Assembly: GCA_005778115.1 (NCBI GenBank)
Contig: SXKJ01000145.1
Span: 13,916-77,915, forward strand
DNA from: Planctomyces sp.
Lineage (GTDB): Bacteria; Planctomycetota; Planctomycetia; Planctomycetales; Planctomycetaceae
Direction: 5' to 3'
DNA: 64,000 nucleotides
The number at the start of each line of letters is the position of its first letter. The stretch's first letter is position 1. The notes beneath the pieces were generated by a model, which made no database searches, was not told the DNA's origin, and worked only from the letters and a program-made list of their open reading frames with translations. Of the stretch, positions 6,521 to 57,348 are shown piece after piece. The position numbers were made by a program, and so were the translations under genes.

Positions 6521-9500
6521 TTAGATGTCGGAATGAAAAGCGCTCTCCGGGTCTTCGGGATCGAGAGAGGCGGACTTAGTCGTGGCACGCGATTGAACGA
6601 TCGCGAAGATGGCGGGCAGGATCAGCAATGTTGCGAACGTGGCGGCCAGTAGACCACCCATCACGGCTCGGCCGAGCGGTGCGGTTTGCTGGCCGGATTC
6701 GCCGAGGCCCAAGGCCAGTGGCAACATGCCGGCGAGCATGGCGGCGCTGGTCATCGTGATCGCTCGCAAGCGGCTGGTCGCGCCGTACACAGCGGCGATG
6801 TGGGACGGGCACTCTTGCCCGTCAGTCCCATCTTCGGGTCGGGCAAGAGTGCCCGACCTACGGCGTTCCTCGGCGAACGTCACCAACAGAATCGCATTGG
6901 CCATCGCGACGCCGAGACTCATGATCGCGCCGATGAAGCTTTGGATGTTGAGCGTGCTGCCGGTCAGCAGCAGCGATAGCGCGACACCGGTGATCACGGC
7001 CGGCGCGGTTGAGACCGTGATGAACGCCAGTCGCCACGACTGAAAGTTGGCGGACAACATCAGGAAGATCACGAGCACCGCCAGCAGCAGTCCGATGCCC
7101 AGTCCATTCATGATCGAGTTCAGCGGGGGGATTTGGCCGCGTAGTTCGTGTGAAATGGTGGGGGGCTTCGGCGGGTCGGGCTTGTCAGCGGCTTTCGCGG
7201 CGGCGACCGCTTCGGCGTGAGATTTCGCTTTGGCGTCCGCGTCTTGTTTGGCGACGGCGTCCAGGGCTTGCCTGATTTGTTGCGAGACCGCGCCGATATC
7301 AGCTCCGGCGATGTTCGCGGTGAGGCTGAGTTCACGTTTCATGTTGTAACGGTCATATTCGCCGGGCGCGACCGCGTTCGTGAGCGACGCGACATCACGC
7401 AGCAACAGCGGTTGCCCCGCATGACTTCCACTGCCCCGTTGGATCGGAACTGCTCCGAGATCTTCGACACTGTCGAGCTGCCGCTGGGGAATCTCAACCT
7501 GCACTTGATAGCCGATGCCGGTCTTCGGATCGGGCCAGTAGTTCGGGACGACGAAGCGGCTCGACGATGTCGCAGTCACGACCGAGCGGGTGACGTTCGA
7601 CATCGTCGTGCCGCTCATCCCGGCTTTCTCGCGATCGACTTTGATCTCGACGGTCGGATAGTCGAGCGATTGTGCGACCTGCATGTCTCGGATCGCGGGG
7701 AGTTTCGTCAGCGCGGCTTGAACTTTGCCGATGTACTCGCGGTTCTCGTCAAGATTGCCGCCACGAGCGGCGATCTCGATCGGCGTGGCCGAGCCGAAGC
7801 TCATGACTTCGCTGATGATGTCGGCCGGCTCGAACGAGAACCGCACGTCGGGAAAACGATTGCGGAACTCGGCGCGAATTTCTTCTTTCATTGCTTCCGT
7901 GCTGATCCCGGAATCGGGTTTGAGGGCGATTCGCAGTAATCCTTCCTCCGGCCCACGCGAGAAGTGATAGACCGAATTGATTGGAAAGCTCGCCGGTACG
8001 GTGCCGATGTAGCCGAGCGTCAACCCGACGTTGTTCTCGCCGACTTTTTGTTTGACCGTGTCGAGGATCTTCAGCGCGATCTGCTCAGTCGTGTCGATAT
8101 GCGTGCCATCGGGAGCCCGGAATCGCAAACGGAATTCGCCAGCATCGACGGTGGGAAAGATCTCGATGCCGAGTTGGCCGCTCGCCCAGAAGAGGGTTGC
8201 ACCGCAGGCGACGAGGTAAGCCGGAACGATAAGCCAACGCAGGCGAACAGAGGCAACGACAAAGCGGGAGAACCAACCGTTTGCTGGCGAGCCGGAGGGC
8301 GTTAGCCCCCGGACAATCTGCAACGTCCGGGGGCTAACGCCCTCCGGCTCACCAAGTCGGCTTTCATTCGACGAGCTGCGCAATAGCCACGTCGAGACCA
8401 CCGGCACGAAGGTGCTCGACAGGATGTAGGAGGCGATCATCGAGAAACCAACCGCGAGCGACAGCGGGACGAAGAGTTCGCGAGCAGCTCCCTGCATGAA
8501 GAAGCTCGGTACAAAGACCGCCAGGATGCAAAGCATCGCCAGCAATCGCGGGATCGCGGTTTGAGCGTTGCCCATCCGCACGGCCCAGGCGATTGAGTTC
8601 ACACGCCGCATCTGCGTGTGGATGTTTTCGATTTCCACCGTCGCTTCATCGACCAAGATGCCGACCGCCAGGGCGAGTCCGCCGAGGGTCATCAGGTTGA
8701 TCGTCTGACCGCACAGCCACAGGCCCACGATCGACGCGGCGATCGCCAGCGGGATATTGAGCACGACGACCAACGCGCTCCGCCAGTCGCGCAGGAACAC
8801 CAACACCATCAGGCCAGTGAGGATCGCCCCCAGGACTCCTTCGGTCGCAAGGCTGTTGATCGCGCGTGTGACATACGGTGACTGATCGAACTCGAACGAG
8901 ACGTTGATGTCCGGCGGAACTTCGGCGCGGAACTTCGGCATCGCCCCTTTGATTTCGTCGATAACGCTCATAGTGGAAGCGTCGGCTCGCTTGGTCGCGA
9001 GGATGTAAACCGCTCGGCGGCCGTTGACGAGCGAGTAGCCAGCCGTGATGTCGGCGGCGTCTTCGATGACACCGATGTCGCGCAGATAGACGGTGCTCGC
9101 GCTGCCGATCGAGGAGGCTCCACCAGTTGGTCCGCCTCCCGTACCGACTTTGATCGGGATGTTGCCCAGCTCGCGAATGTCTTTGACCATCGCGTTGGTC
9201 GGGACCATCGGATAGCTGTCACCGATCTTCAGATTGCCCGACGGGCTGACGGCATTTCCAGCCACGAGCGCACTGACGACGTCATCCGGTGCGATGCCAT
9301 ACGCTCGCAAGCGATCTGGGTCGGTCCTCACGACGATGCTGCGTGCGCTCCCGCCGAAGGGGGGCGGAGCGCTCACACCAGGGAGCGCCGAAAACATCGG
9401 CCGCACTTTCATCAGCGCCATGTCGGAGATTTCGGCAATCGTGCGAGTCTCAGACGAAAAGACCAGATAGCCGACCGGCACGCTGCCAGTGTCGAACCGC

Positions 9501-9940
9501 ATGACGAACGGCGGAACGGTGCCGGGAGGCATCATGGCTCGCGAGCGATTGACGTAATTGATCGTCTCGGCCATCGCCTGAGCCATGTTCGTCCCCGGAT
9601 GGAACATGAGCTTCATCAACGCTGTTCCTTGAACGTTGCGGCTCTCGACGTGATGGATGCCGTTGATGTAAAGAAAATGGTACTCGTAGTAATTGGTCAG
9701 CAACCCTTCCATCTGAGCCGGGTCCATGCCGCCATACGGCTGGCAGACGTAAATCACCGGCAGGTTGAGCGCCGGGAAGATGTCGATGGGCATCCGCTTG
9801 AGCGGCAATTCGATGCCGACCTTCGCCAGCGCGGAATCAAACGCCTTCGGCCGCACGGCAACGAACGCCGTCAGCAGGACAGCAATGATCCCGACCATCA
9901 CGGTGATTGGGCGACGCAGAGCAAAAATAATCGGGTTCAT
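6521..9940 (-). CDS. Efflux RND transporter permease (AcrB/CzcA superfamily), 1139 aa, carrying two in-frame palindromic insertions
   Basis: Internal ATG at 9940 gives MNPIIFALRRPITVMVGIIAVLL. The protein has a 12-TM RND layout, DQSPYVTRAINSLATEGVLGAILTGLMVLVFLRDWRSALVV, and TMTSAAMLAGMLPLALGLGESG near the C-terminus. The ORF track extends the ORF to 10162, but that extension looks non-coding. Confidence 0.9.
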   Translation of the reverse strand: MNPIIFALRRPITVMVGIIAVLLTAFVAVRPKAFDSALAKVGIELPLKRMPIDIFPALNLPVIYVCQPYGGMDPAQMEGLLTNYYEYHFLYINGIHHVESRNVQGTALMKLMFHPGTNMAQAMAETINYVNRSRAMMPPGTVPPFVMRFDTGSVPVGYLVFSSETRTIAEISDMALMKVRPMFSALPGVSAPPPFGGSARSIVVRTDPDRLRAYGIAPDDVVSALVAGNAVSPSGNLKIGDSYPMVPTNAMVKDIRELGNIPIKVGTGGGPTGGASSIGSASTVYLRDIGVIEDAADITAGYSLVNGRRAVYILATKRADASTMSVIDEIKGAMPKFRAEVPPDINVSFEFDQSPYVTRAINSLATEGVLGAILTGLMVLVFLRDWRSALVVVLNIPLAIAASIVGLWLCGQTINLMTLGGLALAVGILVDEATVEIENIHTQMRRVNSIAWAVRMGNAQTAIPRLLAMLCILAVFVPSFFMQGAARELFVPLSLAVGFSMIASYILSSTFVPVVSTWLLRSSSNESRLGEPEGVSPRTLQIVRGLTPSGSPANGWFSRFVVASVRLRWLIVPAYLVACGATLFWASGQLGIEIFPTVDAGEFRLRFRAPDGTHIDTTEQIALKILDTVKQKVGENNVGLTLGYIGTVPASFPINSVYHFSRGPEEGLLRIALKPDSGISTEAMKEEIRAEFRNRFPDVRFSFEPADIISEVMSFGSATPIEIAARGGNLDENREYIGKVQAALTKLPAIRDMQVAQSLDYPTVEIKVDREKAGMSGTTMSNVTRSVVTATSSSRFVVPNYWPDPKTGIGYQVQVEIPQRQLDSVEDLGAVPIQRGSGSHAGQPLLLRDVASLTNAVAPGEYDRYNMKRELSLTANIAGADIGAVSQQIRQALDAVAKQDADAKAKSHAEAVAAAKAADKPDPPKPPTISHELRGQIPPLNSIMNGLGIGLLLAVLVIFLMLSANFQSWRLAFITVSTAPAVITGVALSLLLTGSTLNIQSFIGAIMSLGVAMANAILLVTFAEERRRSGTLARPEDGTDGQECPSHIAAVYGATSRLRAITMTSAAMLAGMLPLALGLGESGQQTAPLGRAVMGGLLAATFATLLILPAIFAIVQSRATTKSASLDPEDPESAFHSDI
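6801..6862. repeat. Double-hairpin palindrome (GACGGGCActctTGCCCGTC ... GTCGGGCAagagTGCCCGAC-CTAC) inside the RND pump CDS
   Basis: Read from the sequence. On the coding (minus) strand it reads GTAGGTCGGGCA..., which matches the GTAGGTC-hairpin family. It encodes ...TLARPEDGTDGQECPS... in the pump. Confidence 0.75.
8286..8353. repeat. 28-bp-arm palindrome inside the RND pump CDS; sister copy of the intergenic element at 38956..39026
   Basis: GGCGAGCCGGAGGGCGTTAGCCCCCGGA (8286..8313) pairs with TCCGGGGGCTAACGCCCTCCGGCTCACC (8326..8353). It encodes ...GEPEGVSPRTLQIVRGLTPSGSP... in frame. Confidence 0.85.
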
Positions 9941-10054
9941 GCGGCGTATCGGAATGAAACGACGGGCCAACATCAAGCTGGAAATCTTATCGGACTTGCG
10001 GTCGCGAACAGATTCGTGACCATATTGGGAACAACCCAAACCGAGGCGTCCCAC

Positions 10055-10315
10055 ATGAACCCGGCGAGCTCCAACAATCCAGCGACGGACTTCCTCACGG
10101 CCGACGCCGAGTGGGATGCGGGGGACTTGGCCTGCGGGGAACTGTTGCTGGATTTGCTCCACAAAATGCGAGCGCTACCTCCCGGTTCCGTGCTGAAGCT
10201 GATTGCCACAGATCCGGCCGCTCGGATCGATATCGGGGCTTGGTGCCGGGTCACGAAAAATCCGCTGGTGGCGAAGTCGCCCCCAGTCTTCTTCATTCAA
10301 CGAAAAGAGAACTGA
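10055..10315 (+). CDS. TusA/SirA-like small sulfur-carrier-fold protein (86 aa)
   Basis: Internal ATG at 10055 of ORF 9599..10315. DAGDLACGELLLDLLHKMRALPPGSVLKLIATDPAARIDIGAWCR matches the TusA layout, with CGEL replacing the canonical CPxP. The upstream part of the ORF is antisense to the RND gene. Confidence 0.6.
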   Translation: MNPASSNNPATDFLTADAEWDAGDLACGELLLDLLHKMRALPPGSVLKLIATDPAARIDIGAWCRVTKNPLVAKSPPVFFIQRKEN

Positions 10316-10318
10316 GTC

Positions 10319-10681
10319 ATGGCTGGTCAATTCTGTGTCAGCATCACACACGCCAAGGACAACGCGGACAAAGCGACGGTTGGGTTCGTTATCGCCAACG
10401 CCGCACTCGGAAGCGAGAAGGACACGCTCGTCTTCTTGAGCGTTGAAGCAGTCCGCCTCGCTCAACAGGGCTACGCCGACGACATCCATGAGGAGGGCTT
10501 TGCTCCGCTCAGGGATCTGATGGCCAACTTCGCGGCGAGCGGCGGGAAGATTTATGTCTGCTCCCCTTGCTTCAAACGCCGCAAGCTCGATGACCAGAAA
10601 CTGGTCGCCGGAGCGGTCATCGTCGGCGGAGCGAAGCTGGTCGAGTTTCTCTCGGATGGCGCGCCCTGCGTGTCCTATTAG
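10319..10681 (+). CDS. DsrE/DsrF-like family protein
   Basis: 120 aa, starting 4 nt after the TusA-like stop. The translation has VGFVIANAAL, TLVFLSVEAVRL, GKIYVCSPCFKRR and GGAKLVEFL, a YchN/DsrE-type pattern. Confidence 0.7.
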   Translation: MAGQFCVSITHAKDNADKATVGFVIANAALGSEKDTLVFLSVEAVRLAQQGYADDIHEEGFAPLRDLMANFAASGGKIYVCSPCFKRRKLDDQKLVAGAVIVGGAKLVEFLSDGAPCVSY

Positions 10682-10690
10682 CGGCAAGTT

Positions 10691-10790
10691 CAAAACCGAC
10701 GTAGGTCAGGCTTTCCAGGCGGACTCGATCAACGATTAACGTGATTTGGCCAATTCGAGTCAGGCTGGAAAGCCTGACCTACGGTTTTTG
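10691..10790. repeat. About 36-bp-arm palindrome of the GTAGGTCAGGC-hairpin family
   Basis: CAAAACCGACGTAGGTCAGGCTTTCCAGGCGGACTCGA (10691..10728) pairs with TCGAGTCAGGCTGGAAAGCCTGACCTACGGTTTTTG (10755..10790). It lies between the DsrE-like and MetE-like genes. Confidence 0.85.
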
Positions 10791-10812
10791 AATCAGTTCC
10801 CAGGAACGCCAC

Positions 10813-12342
10813 ATGCAATACGTCGATCGGCACGCATTGGAACCCGACGTCAGCTTTAACGGCGGTGACATGGACTGCGGCAGCGGGTTGCTGTTGCTTA
10901 TTCGTCGCCACATGGACCCGCTGCGAGCCGGCGGATTGCTCGAAATCCGATCGACCGAATCGAGTGTCGAAGAGGATCTGCCAGCGTGGTGCCGCATGAC
11001 CAAGAACGAATTGGTTTCGTGCGTACGATCAAACTCGGAATGGCGTTTTCTTGTCTGCCGAGGGTCTCTCGCGGATCGAGAGCCGACGAGTATTCCAGGT
11101 AGCCGACATCGTGAGAGTTCGGACCGAACTCTCACGGCTTTAGCTACGGCCACGCCTCTGCCCGCACCAGCGCCTCCGATCGCGCCACTGTCGGTCATGG
11201 GGATCGGGAGTTGGCCGCGGCCGCGCTGGATGTTGCAAACGATTCACGAGCACATGGAAGGGCGGCTGACGAATCAGGAGTTTCACGAGATTGGTGACGA
11301 CGCAGTGCGGTTCGCGGTTGATTCGCAGCTTAAAGCCGGTGTCGATGTCGTGACCGATGGCGAACAGCGTCGCGACAGCTACGCCAGTTTCGTTGGCGGA
11401 CTGCTCGATGGCTGCCAACTTATTCCAATCACCGACCTGCTGCCGTATGTGGACGATCCAGTAAAGTTCGAAGCCGAGTTGCGGGCGCTCGATGTACCGG
11501 CGGGAAGCGTGCGGCATCCGGCTGTGTTCGGACCGATCCGTCGCAGCCGACCGCTGGCCGTTCATGAAATTCAGTTCGCCAAAACGTTGACGGATCGACC
11601 CATCAAAGTTGCTCTGCCTGGACCGTACCTGCTGACTCGCACGATGTGGATGGACTGCATCACCGATCGCGTGTACGAGACTCGTGACAAACTCGCCGAC
11701 GATGTGGTGCGTGTGATGCGTGAAGAGTTGCAGGGATTGCTCGCTGCGGGTGCGGCACTCGTGCAGTTTGACGAACCGGTCCTCACCGAAGTGGTCTTTG
11801 GCCAATCGGCCGGCAATCGCAGTTTCATGTGCGGCGCTCTCAGCGAGAAGCTCGGCACGGTGGAGGAACTGGCGTTCGCAGGCGAATTGATCAATCGCGT
11901 CGTCGAGGGAATTCCACGCGATCGGACGGCTCTGCACATCTGCCGTGGCAATTGGACTCGCGACGAATCGGTCGCGTTAGCCGGCAGCTATGAACCGCTC
12001 GTGCCGCTGCTGAGGTCTCTCAAGGTGGGCACGTTTTTTCTGGAGCTGTGTACTCCGCGCGCCGGCGAGATCGACGTGCTGGCCGCGCTTCCGGACGACT
12101 GCCGCATCGGCGTGGGAGTCGTCAATCAAAAGCTTGATGTGATTGAATCGATAGAAGAGATCATGGCCAAGGCCGAGATTGCCATCCGTGTCTTTGGCCC
12201 ACACCGAGTCTTGATGAATCCTGACTGCGGCTTCGCCACGTTCGCCGACAACCCGGTGGCGTCCGCACATGTCGCCACAGAAAAGCTCGCGGCGATGGTG
12301 AGCGCCGCTCGGCAATTGCGAACCCGACACCACGTCGAGTAG
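10813..12342 (+). CDS. Fusion protein: N-terminal TusA-like domain plus C-terminal cobalamin-independent methionine-synthase-like (MetE C-terminal/UROD-fold) Zn-methyltransferase domain
   Basis: N-terminus: GGDMDCGSGLLLLIRRHMDPLRAGGLLEIRSTE...AWCRMTKNELV. C-terminus: GSWPRPRW, VVTDGEQRRDSY, LVQFDEP, and the MetE-type Zn ligand pattern LHICRGN (H-x-C), FLELCTPRAGE and NPDCGFATF. Confidence 0.75.
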   Translation: MQYVDRHALEPDVSFNGGDMDCGSGLLLLIRRHMDPLRAGGLLEIRSTESSVEEDLPAWCRMTKNELVSCVRSNSEWRFLVCRGSLADREPTSIPGSRHRESSDRTLTALATATPLPAPAPPIAPLSVMGIGSWPRPRWMLQTIHEHMEGRLTNQEFHEIGDDAVRFAVDSQLKAGVDVVTDGEQRRDSYASFVGGLLDGCQLIPITDLLPYVDDPVKFEAELRALDVPAGSVRHPAVFGPIRRSRPLAVHEIQFAKTLTDRPIKVALPGPYLLTRTMWMDCITDRVYETRDKLADDVVRVMREELQGLLAAGAALVQFDEPVLTEVVFGQSAGNRSFMCGALSEKLGTVEELAFAGELINRVVEGIPRDRTALHICRGNWTRDESVALAGSYEPLVPLLRSLKVGTFFLELCTPRAGEIDVLAALPDDCRIGVGVVNQKLDVIESIEEIMAKAEIAIRVFGPHRVLMNPDCGFATFADNPVASAHVATEKLAAMVSAARQLRTRHHVE

Positions 12343-12349
12343 CGGAATT

Positions 12350-12399
12350 CCGGTCGCGGAGCGACCGGACTACGTAACTCAGTCGCTCCCTGACTGAGA
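12350..12399. terminator. Two adjacent hairpins between convergent genes (possible bidirectional terminators)
   Basis: The hairpins are CCGGTCGCggaGCGACCGG (12350..12368) and CTCAGTCgctccctGACTGAG (12379..12399). They lie between the stops at 12342 (+) and 12401 (-). No strong T-run is present. Confidence 0.4.
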
Positions 12400-12400
12400 T

Positions 12401-13051
12401 TTACGGACTCGGCGTCTCAATTGGGCGATTCTTGCGATAGCGACTCAGCAATTGGCGGAGTTTCTGAATGGCATCCTGGCTGAGATCGCAATGCAATTTC
12501 GCCTTGGGGCCGTACAACTTCACTTCGCCATCCTCCAAACTGATCACGACGTGAGTGGTCTCTTTGCTGGCTTTCCACTCCAGGCAGTAGTCGGCATGAA
12601 AGCCGCCTCCTTTCTTTCCGTCGGTGTACGGTGCGAACGAAGTCCGCGCCGAGAACATCGCCGTGAATTGCTCGCCATCGGTCCCCTGCATGGCAAGCAA
12701 CTCTTCATAGAACGGATAGCCGTGCCGCTTGATCGTCTTCGCCCGAGAAAGTTCCTGCACCAGCGACTCCGGTTCCCAGAATTCACTGGGAAGACCTTCG
12801 TAAAGCAGCGCCACTCCCGTTTTCGGAATGCCCGCCAGAACCGTTTGCAGACGATTGAAGTTGGTTTCGATCGCCGGAGGTGGCGCTGCGTCAAAGGTGA
12901 CTTTGACCTCCTGCTTGCACCCGACGAGCCACACGACACACAACACGATCAACCCGCGAAGAGACACGACAGTGCTCCAGAACAAATCACCGTAGCCCGC
13001 CCCCTTGTGGGGCGGATGATTCCAACAATCTGCGCGAATCATCCGAGCCAC
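12401..13051 (-). CDS. Hypothetical lipoprotein
   Basis: The ORF has protein-like composition and a signal/lipobox, LIVLCVVWLVGC. I recognised no family. The start is GTG at 13051 or ATG at 13042. Confidence 0.55.
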   Translation of the reverse strand: MARMIRADCWNHPPHKGAGYGDLFWSTVVSLRGLIVLCVVWLVGCKQEVKVTFDAAPPPAIETNFNRLQTVLAGIPKTGVALLYEGLPSEFWEPESLVQELSRAKTIKRHGYPFYEELLAMQGTDGEQFTAMFSARTSFAPYTDGKKGGGFHADYCLEWKASKETTHVVISLEDGEVKLYGPKAKLHCDLSQDAIQKLRQLLSRYRKNRPIETPSP

Positions 13052-14449: not shown

Positions 14450-15310
14450 TCAAGAGTCTCGAAAGTGTCGGCAGGGAGCAGGTGGCAGGCCGCGCCGAAA
14501 CGGCAGCAGCAGAAGCAGCACAAACGACAGTCGCTCGACTTGTGCGTCGCGAAATTCGGGACGGCCGATGATCATGCCGTCGTGACCAGCATTGGGTTGG
14601 GCGTCGTAGGTGCGAAACAGAAGATCCCACCACGACAGGCAAAAGCCGTAGTTGCTGTTGGTCTCGTGATTCTCAATCGAATGATGCACGCGGTGCATGT
14701 CGGGAGTGACGAGAACCAGACGCAGCACTCGGTCGAGCCACTGCGGCAGTCGAGCGTTGCTGTGATTGAACAGAGCCGTCGCATTCAGCAGGATCTCAAA
14801 GATCATCACGGCCAACGCGGACGCACCAAGCAACGCGATGACGGCAGCCTTCCAGACGAACGACAGCAACGTCTCGACCGTGTGAAAGCGAATGCCGGTG
14901 GTCACGTCGATGTCGAGATCGACGTGATGCACCAGATGCAACCGCCAGAGCCACGGGACTCGGTGAAAGACCCAGTGCTGGCCGTAAATCGCGAGGTCGA
15001 GCAACACGACCGAGGCCGCGACCTCAAACCACGCCGGCAACTCGACGGCGTTGAACAATCCCCAGCCACGAGCTTGCACGCTGATCGCCAGCCCAACCGC
15101 TCCGGCCGGCATCAGTAGTCGCCACACAAAGTTGTTCAACAGCCCCAGGCCCAAGTTGCAATACCATCGCAGCGTCTTGTTCTGCGTCAGCGGTCGCCGC
15201 GGCGCGAGTCGTTCCCACATCGTCATCACAAGCAGTGTTCCGAAGAAACACACGAAGCGATTCACAGCGTCTTGAGCCGGATGGTGCACGACGTCAATTC
15301 TTCGGAGCAA
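14450..15310 (-). CDS. Fatty acid hydroxylase / sterol desaturase family membrane protein
   Basis: Histidine boxes HWVFHRV, WRLHLVHH and HRVHHS are present, along with NYGFCLSWWDLLFRTY. The start is uncertain: the track start is TTG, and it overlaps the upstream gene by 17 nt. Confidence 0.8.
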   Translation of the reverse strand: MLRRIDVVHHPAQDAVNRFVCFFGTLLVMTMWERLAPRRPLTQNKTLRWYCNLGLGLLNNFVWRLLMPAGAVGLAISVQARGWGLFNAVELPAWFEVAASVVLLDLAIYGQHWVFHRVPWLWRLHLVHHVDLDIDVTTGIRFHTVETLLSFVWKAAVIALLGASALAVMIFEILLNATALFNHSNARLPQWLDRVLRLVLVTPDMHRVHHSIENHETNSNYGFCLSWWDLLFRTYDAQPNAGHDGMIIGRPEFRDAQVERLSFVLLLLLPFRRGLPPAPCRHFRDS

Positions 15311-15899
15311 TGAAGGGACGGCGACAGGTATCGAGCGGTTGTTTCACCGAGTCGTAGGCGGCCGCGGGCACCGGCGGCAGAGGCGGAGCACTCTTCACGC
15401 ACGCTCCTTCCATGATGGCCCCGAGTATCACCGCGACGATCAGCGTACAGGCTCGTTGCCGTGGCGACTCCTGGCGGCCACACCAAGCGCCTCCAGTGAC
15501 TGCGACGGTCAGTGCGATGAAGACAGCCAAACTTTGTGCTGGAGCCGTGCCGATCCCGAACAACGCTTGCGGACATTCCAGGACGCCGGTCAGCACGAGG
15601 TATTCGTGAAACGCGGCGACTCCCAATCCGGCCCACGTCGGCGGAACGCTCAGCAAACAGATCAAGCCAGGACGTGATCGTTCGAGAAATCGGCCGAGCG
15701 CCAGCACGACGAGCACGGCCATGACAAACGACCGTTGGTAGAAACAAAGCGGGCAGGCTTTGAGACCAAGCCCCATGCTCAAATACACGCTGCCGCCGGT
15801 CCCGACGACAGCAATCACGATCGCAGCGACCAGACACCTCGCCGCACAGTTCGTGGACGAGTCACCGGAACTCTGCTCTAACGATGCTGAGTCGGTCAT
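15294..15899 (-). CDS. DsbB-family (BdbC-like) disulfide bond formation membrane protein
   Basis: About 4 TM segments with the motif ACPLCFYQR in TM1 and a second Cys pair region (ECPQALFG). Confidence 0.65.
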   Translation of the reverse strand: MTDSASLEQSSGDSSTNCAARCLVAAIVIAVVGTGGSVYLSMGLGLKACPLCFYQRSFVMAVLVVLALGRFLERSRPGLICLLSVPPTWAGLGVAAFHEYLVLTGVLECPQALFGIGTAPAQSLAVFIALTVAVTGGAWCGRQESPRQRACTLIVAVILGAIMEGACVKSAPPLPPVPAAAYDSVKQPLDTCRRPFIAPKN

Positions 15900-15993: not shown

Positions 15994-17178
15994 TCAATTC
16001 ACGGGCACGTGATGCCAAGCATTAAAGAGGTAGCCCTTGGCATTCCAACGGACGGTCTCCGGCTGAACGTCTCCGCGCGAGTCGATCGCTCGGACGATCA
16101 ATTCCTTCGTCGTTGAGTTCACCGCGATTTCGGCGGTCCACAGTTGCCAGCAGAACTCGGACGCCATTGAAGTCAGCTTGGCCTCCGCCCACGAGCGACC
16201 TTGGTCGGCGGAGACTTCGACTTTGCGGATCGAAACTCCCGGCACGCCCGAAGGCAGTGCATAGCCGGCGACTTCGATTCTGCCTGGTTTCAAAGCGGCT
16301 CCGGCCATCGGCGAACAGATCGCGGAGTTGAGCGGCATCCGATAGATGGGAGCATTCTCGGCGACCTCCAGTAGAGTTCCCTCATCGACCAGTTTGTAGA
16401 CATCGGCCACGAAATGATTCGGCGACGGACGGTCGCTGACGACGATTTTGCTCAGCCACTTCACGCTGCGAGCACCGATGTAACCGGGAACGACCGTCCG
16501 CACGGGAAAACCATGATCGGCCGTCAGCGGCTTGTCGTTCATCATCGTGGCGAGCAACGCCCCCGGCGCGACATCGCGGTCCAGCAACGCTTTCTCCAAC
16601 GGGATTGAACCGCCAAATGCAAACGTCTTGCCACCGTCCTCGACCGAATCGAGTCCTTCAAACCAGACATGCTTGGCCGATTCTCGCACGCCGGCCTTTT
16701 TCAACAGATCCGATAATCGAGCGCCGCGCCACTTCGCGTTGCCGATCGCACCCTCACGCCATTGAACGCCTTTGACCGGCTTGAGGCGACTGTGCTCGGA
16801 ACGGCGATTCCCGGCACAGGTCAGCGTGGCCGTGACCGCGTGTTGCTCAAAGCGGCCGAGTTCCGCCAGCGACAACGCCTGCGGCGTTTCAACCAAGCCC
16901 TCGACCGTCAGGCGAAACGAGTCGGCGTTGATCTCCGGCGTGTTGCCGTGACTGCGGATAAAGAACGACTCGACCGGCGTGATCCACGACCGCACGAGAT
17001 CCGGCAACGGCGGCTCGGCATTCATTGGGGCTTTCGAATGAACGAGCAGGCGACTCTCATCGGCGGCGAGAATCGACGGCAGTTTCCCACCGATCAACAT
17101 TAAACCAATGGCACCCGCCGACCAGTTTTTCAACAGCGTTCGGCGGCTGATCAGCGAAGCAATGGAAGCTTGATTCAC
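15994..17178 (-). CDS. Molybdopterin-dependent oxidoreductase of the sulfite-oxidase family (SorA-like), Tat signal
   Basis: GTG start. Twin-arginine-like SRRTLLKNW is present. FFIRSHG, TLTCAGNRR, HGFPVRTVVPGYIGARSVKWL and a C-terminal Mo-co dimerisation-like beta domain fit the family. Confidence 0.85.
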   Translation of the reverse strand: MNQASIASLISRRTLLKNWSAGAIGLMLIGGKLPSILAADESRLLVHSKAPMNAEPPLPDLVRSWITPVESFFIRSHGNTPEINADSFRLTVEGLVETPQALSLAELGRFEQHAVTATLTCAGNRRSEHSRLKPVKGVQWREGAIGNAKWRGARLSDLLKKAGVRESAKHVWFEGLDSVEDGGKTFAFGGSIPLEKALLDRDVAPGALLATMMNDKPLTADHGFPVRTVVPGYIGARSVKWLSKIVVSDRPSPNHFVADVYKLVDEGTLLEVAENAPIYRMPLNSAICSPMAGAALKPGRIEVAGYALPSGVPGVSIRKVEVSADQGRSWAEAKLTSMASEFCWQLWTAEIAVNSTTKELIVRAIDSRGDVQPETVRWNAKGYLFNAWHHVPVN

Positions 17179-55929: not shown

Positions 55930-57348
55930 ATGACTTTGTTGCTTGATGACACGATTGTGGCATTGGCGTCGGCCCCAGGAGTGGGAGGTCGCGGGATCGT
56001 GCGCGTGAGTGGCAGCGATGTGCGGCGGGTGCTCGAACAGCACTTCACGCCAGGCGATGCCGAGCGTTGGACGAAGGCGACTCGTGCGGAGCGGCATGTG
56101 GGTGAGTGGCGATTGGCCGCGGATGTGCCGTGGAACGACGCTCCGTTTCAGAACGGATTGCGCCTGCCGGTTGACGTAGCCTTGTGGCCGACAAAGCGGA
56201 GTTACACAGGACAGCCATTGGCCGAGCTGCACTTGGTCGGTTCGCCAACATTGCTCGAAGCGATGCTGACGCAGCTGTGTCGCAGCGGTTGCCGAGCAGC
56301 TCGGCCGGGTGAATTCACGTTGCGAGCGTTCTTGGCGGGGCGGCTCGATTTGTTGCAGGCGGAGGCAGTACTGGGGGTCATCGACGCGGCGGATCATGTG
56401 GAGTTGGAGCAGGCGTTGCAGCAGTTGGCGGGTGGTATCTCGCAACAGATGGGAACGCTGCGAGCCGAGTTGCTCGATCTGCTGGCGGATTTGGAAGCGG
56501 GGCTGGACTTCGTAGACGAAGACATTGAGTTCGTTTCGCGCGAGCAATTGCTGTCGCGAGTCACGATGGCTCAACAAACGATCTCGGAGTTGTGCGATCA
56601 AGCGTCGCGGCGATTGCAGAGTTCGTCGCGACCAAGTGTCGTTCTGGCGGGATTGCCGAATGCTGGAAAGAGCACGTTGCTCAACGCTCTGACCGGACGA
56701 TCGACGGCGCTCGTTTCCGAAGTCAGCGGGACGACGCGCGACTATCTCCGTGTGCCATTGGATCGAGACGACTTGCACGTCGATCTAATCGACACGGCCG
56801 GTTGGGATTCGAAGACGAGCGGGATCGAAGCAGTGGCTCAACAGCGGCGGCATGAGCAGTGGCAGCAAGCGGACTTGATCGCGTGGTGCAGCGATTTATC
56901 TGCCGGTTCGGCGCGGGACGAGCAGTTGTTTGCAGAGTTACGCGACGAGGAGCGGCCGGTCGTTTGGGTGGGAACAAAAGCGGATCGAGTCCCCGTAGCT
57001 TGGACGCCCTCGTTTGAGTGCCCGGAGGTAGGCGTCCGAGCTACGGTCAGTGCGCGTGATGGTCGCGGGCTCGACGAATTGTGTGCTCTGTTGGCCATAA
57101 GGCTGTCGGCAGAATCGCATGGACGGCGACAGTGGATCGGCATGACCGCGGCTCGATGTCAGAACAGCCTGCTCGCAGCGCGGGACGCGCTCGGCCAAAC
57201 ACTTGAAGCGGCAAGCCTGGGGTTGAGTGATGACTTGGTGATCGTTGAATTGCGCGACGTGCTTGAACATCTCGGCCACATTGTCGGCGCGGTTTACACC
57301 GACGACGTGCTCGATCGCGTCTTCAGCAGGTTCTGCATTGGAAAGTAG
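55930..57348 (+). CDS. mnmE: tRNA modification GTPase MnmE (TrmE)
   Basis: Translation has DTIVALASAPGVGGRGIVRVSG, GEFTLRAFLAGRLDLLQAEAV, the G-domain motifs GLPNAGKSTLLNAL and DTAG, and the canonical C-terminal FCIGK. Confidence 0.92.
   Translation: MTLLLDDTIVALASAPGVGGRGIVRVSGSDVRRVLEQHFTPGDAERWTKATRAERHVGEWRLAADVPWNDAPFQNGLRLPVDVALWPTKRSYTGQPLAELHLVGSPTLLEAMLTQLCRSGCRAARPGEFTLRAFLAGRLDLLQAEAVLGVIDAADHVELEQALQQLAGGISQQMGTLRAELLDLLADLEAGLDFVDEDIEFVSREQLLSRVTMAQQTISELCDQASRRLQSSSRPSVVLAGLPNAGKSTLLNALTGRSTALVSEVSGTTRDYLRVPLDRDDLHVDLIDTAGWDSKTSGIEAVAQQRRHEQWQQADLIAWCSDLSAGSARDEQLFAELRDEERPVVWVGTKADRVPVAWTPSFECPEVGVRATVSARDGRGLDELCALLAIRLSAESHGRRQWIGMTAARCQNSLLAARDALGQTLEAASLGLSDDLVIVELRDVLEHLGHIVGAVYTDDVLDRVFSRFCIGK

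Follow-up and report, generated by a model that had tools for sequence, protein, structure and literature searches.

A TusA, DsrE-like and TusA::MetE-type gene cassette as a possible chalcogen relay at a homocysteine site

Introduction

What would a zinc enzyme of the MetE type do with a TusA-like sulfur carrier fused to its N-terminus and two further carrier-like proteins encoded beside it? The question is raised by a three-gene cassette in Planctomyces sp. (assembly GCA_005778115.1, contig SXKJ01000145.1). We analysed a stretch of 64,000 nt from this contig, called the window below, and coordinates without a prefix are positions in it. Homologous loci have L-numbers, relative proteins have P-numbers, and genomes and contigs have G- and C-numbers. 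The cassette consists of a stand-alone TusA-like carrier of 86 amino acids (aa) (10055-10315, + strand), a DsrE-like protein of 120 aa (10319-10681, + strand), and a fusion protein of 509 aa (10813-12342, + strand) in which a TusA-like domain precedes a MetE-type barrel.

The synthesis of methionine and homocysteine is textbook metabolism, yet it was as late as 2021 that four families of folate-independent "core" methionine synthases came to be recognised, and for one of them the methyl source is still unknown. The cassette represents a further branch of the core-MetE fold that is very widespread and highly conserved, and its partners are sulfur or selenium carriers. Automatic pipelines label the fusion protein "methionine synthase" or "TusA family protein". 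However, its putative catalytic cysteine, which is selenocysteine (Sec) in some relatives, has no counterpart in the known methionine synthases.

According to the reading that we favour, with a probability of about 0.4, the cassette would be a self-contained Cys/Sec relay for sulfur, and possibly selenium, at a zinc-bound homocysteine site, and not a classic methyl-folate methionine synthase.

Results

The cassette is kept as a unit in about ten phyla

A search of 5.8 billion proteins gave about 6,000 matches. The best 120 of these are all fusion proteins of 501-547 aa with 62-92% identity, save one partial sequence of 440 aa, and their named sources are Planctomycetota, Acidobacteriota, Burkholderiales, "Deltaproteobacteria" and Verrucomicrobiota. 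A scan of GTDB with one genome per species gave 200 relatives. The best 80 of them all come from metagenome-assembled genomes (MAGs) and add Binatia, Dehalococcoidia, Latescibacterota, Methylomirabilota and Actinomycetota. In all, the cassette is found in about ten phyla, nearly always in MAGs, and the identity of the fusion protein is 58-92%. Four longer relatives (P0152, P0178, P0222 and P0241) were considered as new fusions and rejected, as they look like chimeric or frameshifted gene calls.

The neighbourhoods of 82 fetched loci were analysed by tblastn and by clustering of all open reading frames (ORFs). Across phyla, conservation of the neighbours is limited to the DsrE-like gene and the stand-alone TusA gene, while the remaining flanking genes vary with the lineage. 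The DsrE-like gene is present in 76 out of 82 loci, always with a length of 120 aa and, apart from one truncated locus, with 66-98% identity. The stand-alone TusA gene lies directly upstream of it in most loci and is missing in Binatia. Because the same gene order is found in 76 of the 82 loci, from many phyla, the three-gene arrangement is far beyond chance. The gene starts are sound, since the homologues of each of the three proteins align from residue 1. An initial annotation, made by reading the DNA, had described three ORFs with gaps of 3 nt (TusA/DsrE) and 131 nt (DsrE/fusion) and a palindrome in the larger gap, and had taken the genes for one functional cluster. The ORFs, the gaps and the palindrome are all present in the window, and the conserved gene order bears out the functional unit.

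Six other genomes of the window's own family contain neither the fusion nor its sister form, so the distribution is patchy. Among 151 Planctomycetota genomes the fusion is present in seven, and a sister form with 44-49% identity is present in 13 more. The fusion was found in 8 out of 301 Burkholderiales genomes, and a sample of 251 genomes from another phylum contains four carriers. In the literature we found no paper that joins TusA or DsrE to a MetE-type enzyme and none that describes the fusion, in agreement with the initial annotation, which knew of no characterised enzyme with it. The "MetE-fusion" of Phaeocystis was rejected as a precedent, as it has a different architecture (polyketide synthase/acyl carrier protein (PKS/ACP)-MetE-CzcO).

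The barrel retains the residues of a zinc and homocysteine site

An AlphaFold2 model of the fusion was built on 68 sequences. The mean predicted local distance difference test score (pLDDT) is 89.8 and the predicted template modelling score (pTM) is 0.87. The model contains a TusA-like domain (residues 1-85, 10813-11067), a disordered, low-complexity linker rich in Pro and Ala (residues 86-126, 11068-11190), and a core MetE-type (beta/alpha)8 barrel (residues 127-509, 11191-12342), all on the + strand. The linker has a pLDDT of 52-56, and both its length and its sequence vary in the alignment. The barrel matches Pfam Meth_synt_2 with 95.9 bits over residues ~130-505 (cut-off 21). Its best Foldseek match is MesD from Shewanella (3RPD), with a TM-score of 0.81 on the target; C-terminal barrels of MetE are also matched, and the top 32 matches are all MetE, MesD or YxjG-type.

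By alignment to 3RPD, the zinc ligands are predicted to be H375 (11935-11937), C377 (11941-11943), E411 (12043-12045) and C472 (12226-12228), and they are kept in 66-67 out of 68 aligned homologues. The initial annotation had picked out zinc ligands in the motifs LHICRGN, FLELCTPRAGE and NPDCGFATF, and TusA cysteines in DLACGELLLDL and DMDCGSGLLLL; all five motifs are found in the translations. The putative homocysteine-binding residues are kept equally well, S133 and E184 in 68 out of 68 homologues and D320 in 67. They correspond to S433, E484 and D599 of E. coli, with the residue roles taken from Price et al. 2021 (PMC7857596). In MesD 3RPD, the counterparts of the zinc and homocysteine residues in the alignment are those in contact with selenomethionine. 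Judged by its modelled fold and its aligned ligands, the barrel belongs to the core-MetE superfamily, with MesD as the nearest member.

Such a site could be that of a fifth family of folate- and cobalamin-independent core methionine synthases. The enzyme would use a methyl donor yet to be named, and TusA and DsrE would be accessory proteins for reduction of the site or delivery of the substrate, as MesX is for MesD. The complete set of zinc and homocysteine ligands agrees with this account, and so does the nearest solved relative, MesD, which is a methionine synthase. Against it, the fusion scores no more than 175 bits with all NCBIfam methionine synthase equivalogs (cut-offs 258-930). The best model, NF003317, gives 175.1 bits (cut-off 406), the canonical MetE model TIGR01371 gives 82.7 bits (cut-off 929.95), and all 10 models listed stay below their cut-offs. 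Meth_synt_1, the folate-binding barrel, obtains 16.9 bits in the fusion, below the cut-off of 27. No NCBIfam equivalog is reached by any of the three proteins of the cassette.

The initial annotation named, among other options, the methylation of sulfane sulfur. In this version the tethered TusA domain would present a persulfide to the zinc site, and the barrel would methylate the sulfane sulfur to give methanethiol or methyl persulfide. It is true that TusA is tethered to a zinc fold that alkylates thiols, and that the cassette encodes no partner for a free-thiol substrate. However, the strictly conserved Ser/Glu/Asp triad for the amino-acid end of homocysteine would then be purposeless, and there is no obvious methyl donor. 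Of the possible donor partners (folate domain, corrinoid protein or MesX), none is conserved with the cassette. We consider this reaction very improbable.

A divergent paralogue of the fusion, P0128 (503 aa, 47% identical), lacks the His of H-x-C, C472 and the Cys of the FMCG loop described below. Judged by these residues, it is probably a non-catalytic or retooled copy.

A cysteine or selenocysteine in a subfamily-specific loop

In the alignment to 3RPD, about 19 residues that MesD lacks follow the D-E-P strand, and they include the motif R-S-F-M-C-G-A-L. The cysteine of this motif, C340 (codon TGC, 11830-11832, + strand), is found in all members linked to TusA and DsrE. The loop is probably mobile, because the confidence of the model is low there (pLDDT ~53). 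Two relatives, P0139 and P0157, have no Cys at the loop position, and they have neither a TusA nor a DsrE neighbour. The loop residue and the carrier partners therefore go together.

In two Planctomycetota genomes from different families (L092/L098 and L095) the codon aligned with C340 is TGA, and the frame beyond it runs on through the conserved H-x-C-R-G-N-W and the later motifs. A third relative of this kind, P0147 (L102), is distant (37% identical) and is encoded on a contig with 27% G+C. The one TGA in its frame is at this position as well, while all three Trp codons are TGG and the stop codon is TAA. The window's own fusion is not a selenoprotein, as codon 340 is TGC, and none of the four carriers among the 251 genomes of the other phylum has a Sec form. 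An interchange of Cys and Sec marks a catalytic nucleophile or a redox-active residue.

Directly upstream of the Sec barrel in L102 lies a gene for a DsrE-like protein of 113 aa with the motif C-G-I-C, which passes the NCBIfam YedF model with 117.3 bits (cut-off 110). YedF is a fusion of TusA and DsrE (CGxC) that has been tied to SelD and selenium use by comparative genomics (PMC5322559).

These relatives bring up the possibility of a selenium-specific module, which overlaps with the relay reading. The carriers would bind selenium, from selenite or a similar compound, as perselenide or selenotrisulfide, and the barrel would make or dismantle selenohomocysteine or selenomethionine, or feed SelD. 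The three relatives with Sec in the loop and the YedF-type neighbour in L102 are in favour of such a module. However, the Sec residue would be the catalytic nucleophile, which is not evidence of a selenium substrate, and the window's DsrE-like protein has no match at E<0.01 to the NCBIfam YedF model (TIGR03527, cut-off 110). The genomic evidence on this point is given below.

Two TusA-like domains and a DsrE-like protein with paired cysteines

Both TusA-like sequences have a Cys in a C-G motif at helix 1 and a second Cys in W-C-R-x-T-x-N. In the stand-alone protein these are Cys27, in D-L-A-C-G at the start of the helix, and Cys64, in W-C-R-V-T-K-N. Cys22 of the fusion (codon 10876-10878) is present in 58 out of 58 sequences that have the TusA domain, and Cys60 is nearly invariant. 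The stand-alone protein and the fusion domain (residues 27-82) obtain 36.6 and 30.1 bits with Pfam TusA (PF01206, cut-off 28.6), and 36.4 and 21.5 bits with the TusA equivalog NF001423, which is not reached (cut-off 78). The fusion domain is modelled as a two-layer alpha/beta fold with strands at residues 13-18, 42-47, 66-73 and 76-82, helices at 22-34 and 52-62, and a pLDDT of 81-95. Cys22 is at the start of the first helix. The order, beta-alpha-beta-alpha-beta-beta, agrees with the TusA fold assumed in the initial annotation.

The DsrE-like protein scores 55.1 bits with Pfam DsrE (PF02635, cut-off 22.7) and has the motif C81-S/A-P83-C84. C81 (10559-10561), P83 and C84 (10568-10570) are invariant in 37 sequences. 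In the 82 loci the DsrE-like gene is single, which does not correspond to DsrEFH or TusBCD. The domains named in the initial annotation (TusA, DsrE, and TusA plus MetE's C-terminal domain) are thus recovered by hidden Markov model searches, with all Pfam scores above the gathering cut-offs. A complex prediction for the DsrE-like protein and the full fusion gave a score of 0.11 (mark 0.32) and was used neither way.

The gene order of the sister form is TusA, DsrE-like, TusA::OsmC-like, and a separate MetE-like barrel. The TusA::OsmC-like genes are located at L092:1184-1909, L093:1926-2630 and L094:2842-3567, in sister loci of Planctomycetota, and their OsmC-like domain is of the one-Cys type. 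Taking the fusion and the sister form together, the second TusA is always tethered, either to the barrel or to a one-Cys OsmC-type thiol-redox domain.

The CxPC motif and the OsmC-like fusion would also suit a thiol-redox enzyme that repairs an oxidised metabolite of the methionine branch, for example free methionine sulfoxide, homocystine or S-sulfo-homocysteine. The attack on the metabolite would come from Cys/Sec340, and the cysteines of TusA, DsrE and OsmC would resolve the product. Cys/Sec pairs are typical of redox-active residues, and the site is predicted to bind a methionine skeleton. However, the TusA and DsrE folds are known as sulfur carriers and not as disulfide reductases, and no thioredoxin-type partner is conserved with the cassette in the 82 loci. 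Such a repair function seems improbable to us.

Genes of methionine metabolism in the carrier genomes

A full-length MetH is present in 39 out of 40 carrier genomes. The single genome without MetH also lacks SelD and is probably incomplete. Canonical two-domain MetE is found in 3 out of 41 carrier genomes, and a split MetE in seven, all Dehalococcoidia. MesX (DUF1852, PF08908) is found in none of the 41 carrier genomes, but 14 control genomes also lack it. The initial annotation had raised the question of canonical methionine synthases in the window's genome (G000). A MetH-type gene is present there, and in addition the genome has two further core-MetE-like paralogues, C363:9890-10819 (L001:1474-2679, 401 aa) and C441:12132-12725 (L003). 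The N-terminus of the 401-aa paralogue is hydrophobic and resembles a signal peptide, which is unusual for a methionine synthase.

Divergently oriented metY (Cys_Met_Meta_PP), metX and metW, together with a PNP_UDP_1 gene, adjoin the cassette at 21 loci, all in Binatia. Searches of the entire window and of 10 diverse loci gave no riboswitch (cobalamin, S-adenosylmethionine (SAM) or any other) at the Rfam gathering thresholds.

For a core methionine synthase these data can be read in two ways. As MetE is rare in the carriers, the cassette could be a B12-independent back-up to MetH, and it adjoins metY-metX-metW in Binatia. On the other hand, with MetH almost always present, no genome is seen that relies on the cassette alone, no methyl-donor partner is conserved, and the RNA scan found neither a B12 nor a SAM riboswitch. 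In addition, this account gives no role to the Cys/Sec loop, the CxPC of the DsrE-like protein, the two TusA carriers or the OsmC variant. On balance we regard a fifth family of core methionine synthases as a possible but somewhat unlikely explanation.

Transporters and other genes next to the cassette

Four Burkholderiales MAGs (L023, L026, L030 and L087) have a PhnC/PhnE/PhnD-type transporter of the ATP-binding cassette (ABC) class upstream of the fusion. In L023 and L026 it lies between the DsrE-like gene and the fusion. For L023 alone the region downstream of the fusion was examined, and it encodes a second binding protein and a permease. In a Methylomirabilota MAG (L039) the same type of transporter is located directly upstream of TusA. 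The L023 binding protein (L023:3237-4277) is closest to HtxB (E 1e-77) and keeps the capping Trp52 of HtxB. At HtxB positions N128 and F158 it has Ser and His, which gives the S-T-S...H motif of the phosphite binder PtxB and thus a hybrid pocket. From these residues we infer a pocket for an XO3-type anion, with phosphite, or the isosteric sulfite or selenite, as candidates. Methylphosphonate was considered as a methyl donor because of the PhnD-type transporter and was rejected, as HtxB does not bind methylphosphonate and the pocket has no room for it.

A transglutaminase-like gene lies upstream on the same strand in eight loci of four phyla. In L017 it encodes a 370-aa transglutaminase-core protein upstream of TusA (L017:4487-5596), and the other seven loci are L021, L025, L028, L032, L034, L061 and L085. 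The STRING partners listed for YedF in PMC5322559 also include a transglutaminase-like enzyme.

Selenium genes in the carrier genomes

SelD is found above the cut-off in 40 out of 41 carrier genomes. The background is high, with SelD in 113 out of 151 Planctomycetota and 227 out of 301 Burkholderiales genomes (~75%). For Planctomycetota the carriers have SelD in 19 out of 20 genomes (Fisher one-sided p 0.017), for Burkholderiales in 6 out of 8 (p 0.69), and the pooled p is 0.053, in tests where the genomes are related and not independent. The co-occurrence was therefore rejected as a striking link to selenium, because 40 out of 41 is barely above the background.

The 82 loci were searched for SelD, SelA and tRNA-Sec near the cassette. 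Only a SelD was found, within 6 kb of the cassette in one locus (L065), where it is convergent beside the fusion, and there is no tRNA-Sec with a UCA anticodon. As the window's genome encodes SelA and a fused SelD, it is able to produce selenoproteins; no SelU was found in this genome. Its SelD is located in an ORF of 865 aa, fused to another domain (G000:C424, L090:2979-5576, - strand), and Binatia have a similar SelD frame of ~760 aa.

In a Planctomycetota MAG, a tRNA of 94 nt lies between the DsrE-like gene and the fusion (L061:5870-5963, + strand). It has a 6-bp D stem, a long extra arm, the anticodon GCA and U73, and ARAGORN calls it tRNA-Cys. It matches the Rfam tRNA-Sec model end to end with 44.3 bits (gathering score 47) and resembles the selC*-type tRNACys of anaerobic bacteria (PMC7609411).

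For the selenium-specific module, this adds the tRNASec-like tRNA in L061, the adjacent SelD in L065, SelD in nearly all carriers, and SelD with SelA in the window's genome. The predicted pocket in L023, the only one inspected, suits an XO3 anion. Homologous binding proteins are encoded at the cassette in three more Burkholderiales MAGs and one from Methylomirabilota, and the NCBIfam "putative selenate" binding family is a distant relative of the L023 protein. Against this stand the high SelD background, the single locus with SelD within 6 kb, and the lack of a UCA tRNA-Sec in any of the 82 loci. The link between the cassette and selenium is suggestive only, and it is best supported by the YedF-type partner in L102 and the tRNA in L061. 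We consider a module specific to selenium unlikely.

The spacer palindrome and the other genes of the window

The spacer between the DsrE-like gene and the fusion contains an inverted repeat (10700-10783, no strand). Its arms of 29 nt (10700-10728 and 10755-10783) are 93% complementary, and a third copy of the unit lies at position 57345 of the window, where 0 are expected by chance. In the closest relatives the spacer is 12 nt long or contains a different palindrome in each genome. Different palindromes resembling repetitive extragenic palindromic (REP) elements are found at L009:6577-6733, L010:6589-6698 and L012:2677-2854, compared with 10682-10812 in the window. The spacer was invaded independently in four closely related genomes, and two others keep the 12-nt gap. 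Because close relatives have the short gap or other palindromes there, the palindrome is a REP-like insertion peculiar to this genome, at a site that tolerates such elements and outside the conserved module. The element noted in the initial annotation is thus present but is not a conserved regulatory part. A permissive RNA scan of 9700-10900 gave only spurious microRNA matches on the palindrome, and no sigma-70 promoter was found in a scan of 9700-12600.

Divergent to the cassette lies an ORF on the - strand (6521-10162) that, by inspection of its translation, resembles a resistance-nodulation-division (RND) pump. Its conserved part starts at ~9940, which leaves a divergent spacer of 114 nt. 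The RND operon of the initial annotation is supported in so far as an RND-like ORF is there, but according to the ORF clustering it is not kept as a neighbour at the other cassette loci.

Two genes lie on the - strand 3-5 kb downstream of the cassette. One encodes a sulfite-oxidase-type molybdoenzyme (Oxidored_molyb and Mo-co_dimer, with a twin-arginine-like leader) at 15997-17178, and the other a DsbB-like membrane protein at 15297-15899.

Discussion

What, then, does the cassette do? Several observations lead us to read it as a relay of chalcogen atoms. It is kept as a unit in 76 of the 82 loci and about ten phyla while the flanks change, and the zinc and homocysteine residues are kept in 66-68 out of 68 homologues. 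Cys340 is specific to the clade linked to TusA and DsrE and is replaced by TGA in three genomes. The partners are of the redox type, namely the CxPC of the DsrE-like protein, the TusA::OsmC fusion and the YedF-passing partner in L102. A methyl-donor partner is missing, as there is no Meth_synt_1 domain, no MesX in the 41 genomes and no riboswitch in the window and 10 loci. A link to methionine is seen in the 39 out of 40 carriers with MetH and in the 21 Binatia loci with metY-metX-metW. Finally, the fusion is modelled with a pTM of 0.87. The loop Cys/Sec, the invariant CxPC, the TusA::OsmC sister form and the YedF-type partner of the distant relative were missed in the initial annotation, and they point away from a plain thiol methyltransferase.

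The transfer order, the substrate and the direction that we infer are as follows. The cysteines would pass sulfane sulfur or selenium from the stand-alone TusA to the C-x-P-C of the DsrE-like protein, then to Cys22 of the tethered TusA, and from there to Cys340 of the mobile loop, which is Sec in relatives. The relay would end at the zinc centre of a MetE barrel that has no folate domain and still binds the homocysteine or methionine skeleton. There the enzyme would add, remove or exchange the sulfur or selenium atom of (seleno)homocysteine. In the direction that we favour, a carrier persulfide on zinc and Cys340 would attack an activated C4 amino acid, for example an O-acyl-homoserine. This would give a mixed disulfide between enzyme and homocysteine, the thiols of the relay would resolve it, and the homocysteine released would be methylated by the MetH of the cell. 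This mechanism would account for the lack of a methyl donor, for the presence of MetH in the same genomes and for the metX/metY neighbourhood, but in these specifics it is speculative and quite unlikely to be right.

Several points weigh against a relay. The set of zinc and homocysteine residues is also exactly that of a methionine synthase, and the same is true for the fold of the barrel. The canonical CPxP is missing in both TusA-like domains, where the motifs are C-G-E-L and C-G-S-G. The synteny with metYXW in Binatia belongs to one lineage and counts as one event. With the pyridoxal 5'-phosphate (PLP)-dependent MetY already encoded in the carrier genomes, another way to homocysteine would be superfluous. 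In the two phyla where the ABC transporter occurs, it is similar to binders of phosphite and hypophosphite, and nothing ties these ligands to sulfur chemistry.

In its most specific form our proposal describes a route, independent of PLP, by which the C-S or C-Se bond of homocysteine would be built. A protein-bound persulfide or perselenide, relayed to the Cys/Sec loop, would be activated by zinc and alkylated by an activated homoserine, in effect methionine-synthase chemistry with the carbon and chalcogen partners swapped. In some lineages an ABC importer for XO3 oxyanions, similar to sulfite or selenite, may feed the route. Such a route is doubtful, but if it exists, aerobic bacteria could make (seleno)homocysteine without free sulfide or selenide. 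The functional novelty of the cassette is high but unproven. Once the reaction is solved, it would reveal a novel methyl source or else a novel mode by which sulfur or selenium enters amino acids, and many thousands of database annotations would be corrected. Metabolic models of abundant phyla that live uncultured in soil and freshwater, such as Binatia, Planctomycetota, Dehalococcoidia, Latescibacterota and Methylomirabilota, would also improve.

Comparison with known systems

The nearest known system is MesD with MesX (Acinetobacter ACIAD3523/3524; 3RPD; PMC7857596). MesD 3RPD is both the best sequence match (E 2.9e-24) and the best fold match (TM-score 0.81) of the barrel. Both proteins have a single MetE-type barrel without a folate-binding domain, with the same zinc ligands (H-x-C, E, C) and identical Ser/Glu/Asp residues that bind homocysteine at its amino-acid end, and both systems occur mostly in non-methanogenic, probably aerobic bacteria. 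However, the cassette barrel is only ~24% identical to MesD, has the additional Cys/Sec loop of ~19 residues and has a TusA fused to its N-terminus. Its obligate neighbours are the DsrE-like and TusA-like genes, and MesX is found in 0 of the 41 carrier genomes (the 14 controls are also without it). With canonical MetE (TIGR01371) the fusion shares the catalytic C-terminal barrel (Meth_synt_2), the site for activation of a zinc thiolate and the homocysteine residues. Unlike MetE, it has no N-terminal Meth_synt_1 barrel to complete the methyl-folate site, and it has 509 aa, of which 385 are in the barrel.

The carriers resemble YedF (TIGR03527, "sulfurtransferase-like selenium metabolism protein"), which combines the same folds, TusA/SirA-like and DsrE-like with a CxxC motif. 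In the cassette, however, the two folds are encoded by separate genes, the DsrE-like motif is C-S/A-P-C and not C-G-x-C, and the TusA motif is C-G and not C-P-x-P. The proteins of the window do not match the YedF model, and YedF has no known MetE-like partner.

In sulfur oxidisers and in tRNA thiolation, TusA-DsrE(FH)/DsrE3 relays pass persulfide or thiosulfonate sulfur from Cys to Cys (PMC4175335, PMC11094781). These relays, too, have neighbouring genes for a small TusA and a DsrE, whose conserved cysteines are where they would be expected. They differ from the cassette, whose locus has no Dsr, sHdr, rhodanese or Tus partners and one DsrE-like gene in place of DsrEFH, and an end acceptor that is a MetE-type zinc enzyme is without precedent in them. 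Although the carrier pair is not a member of YedF, DsrEFH or TusBCD, by analogy it may work like a split YedF or a TusA-DsrE relay.

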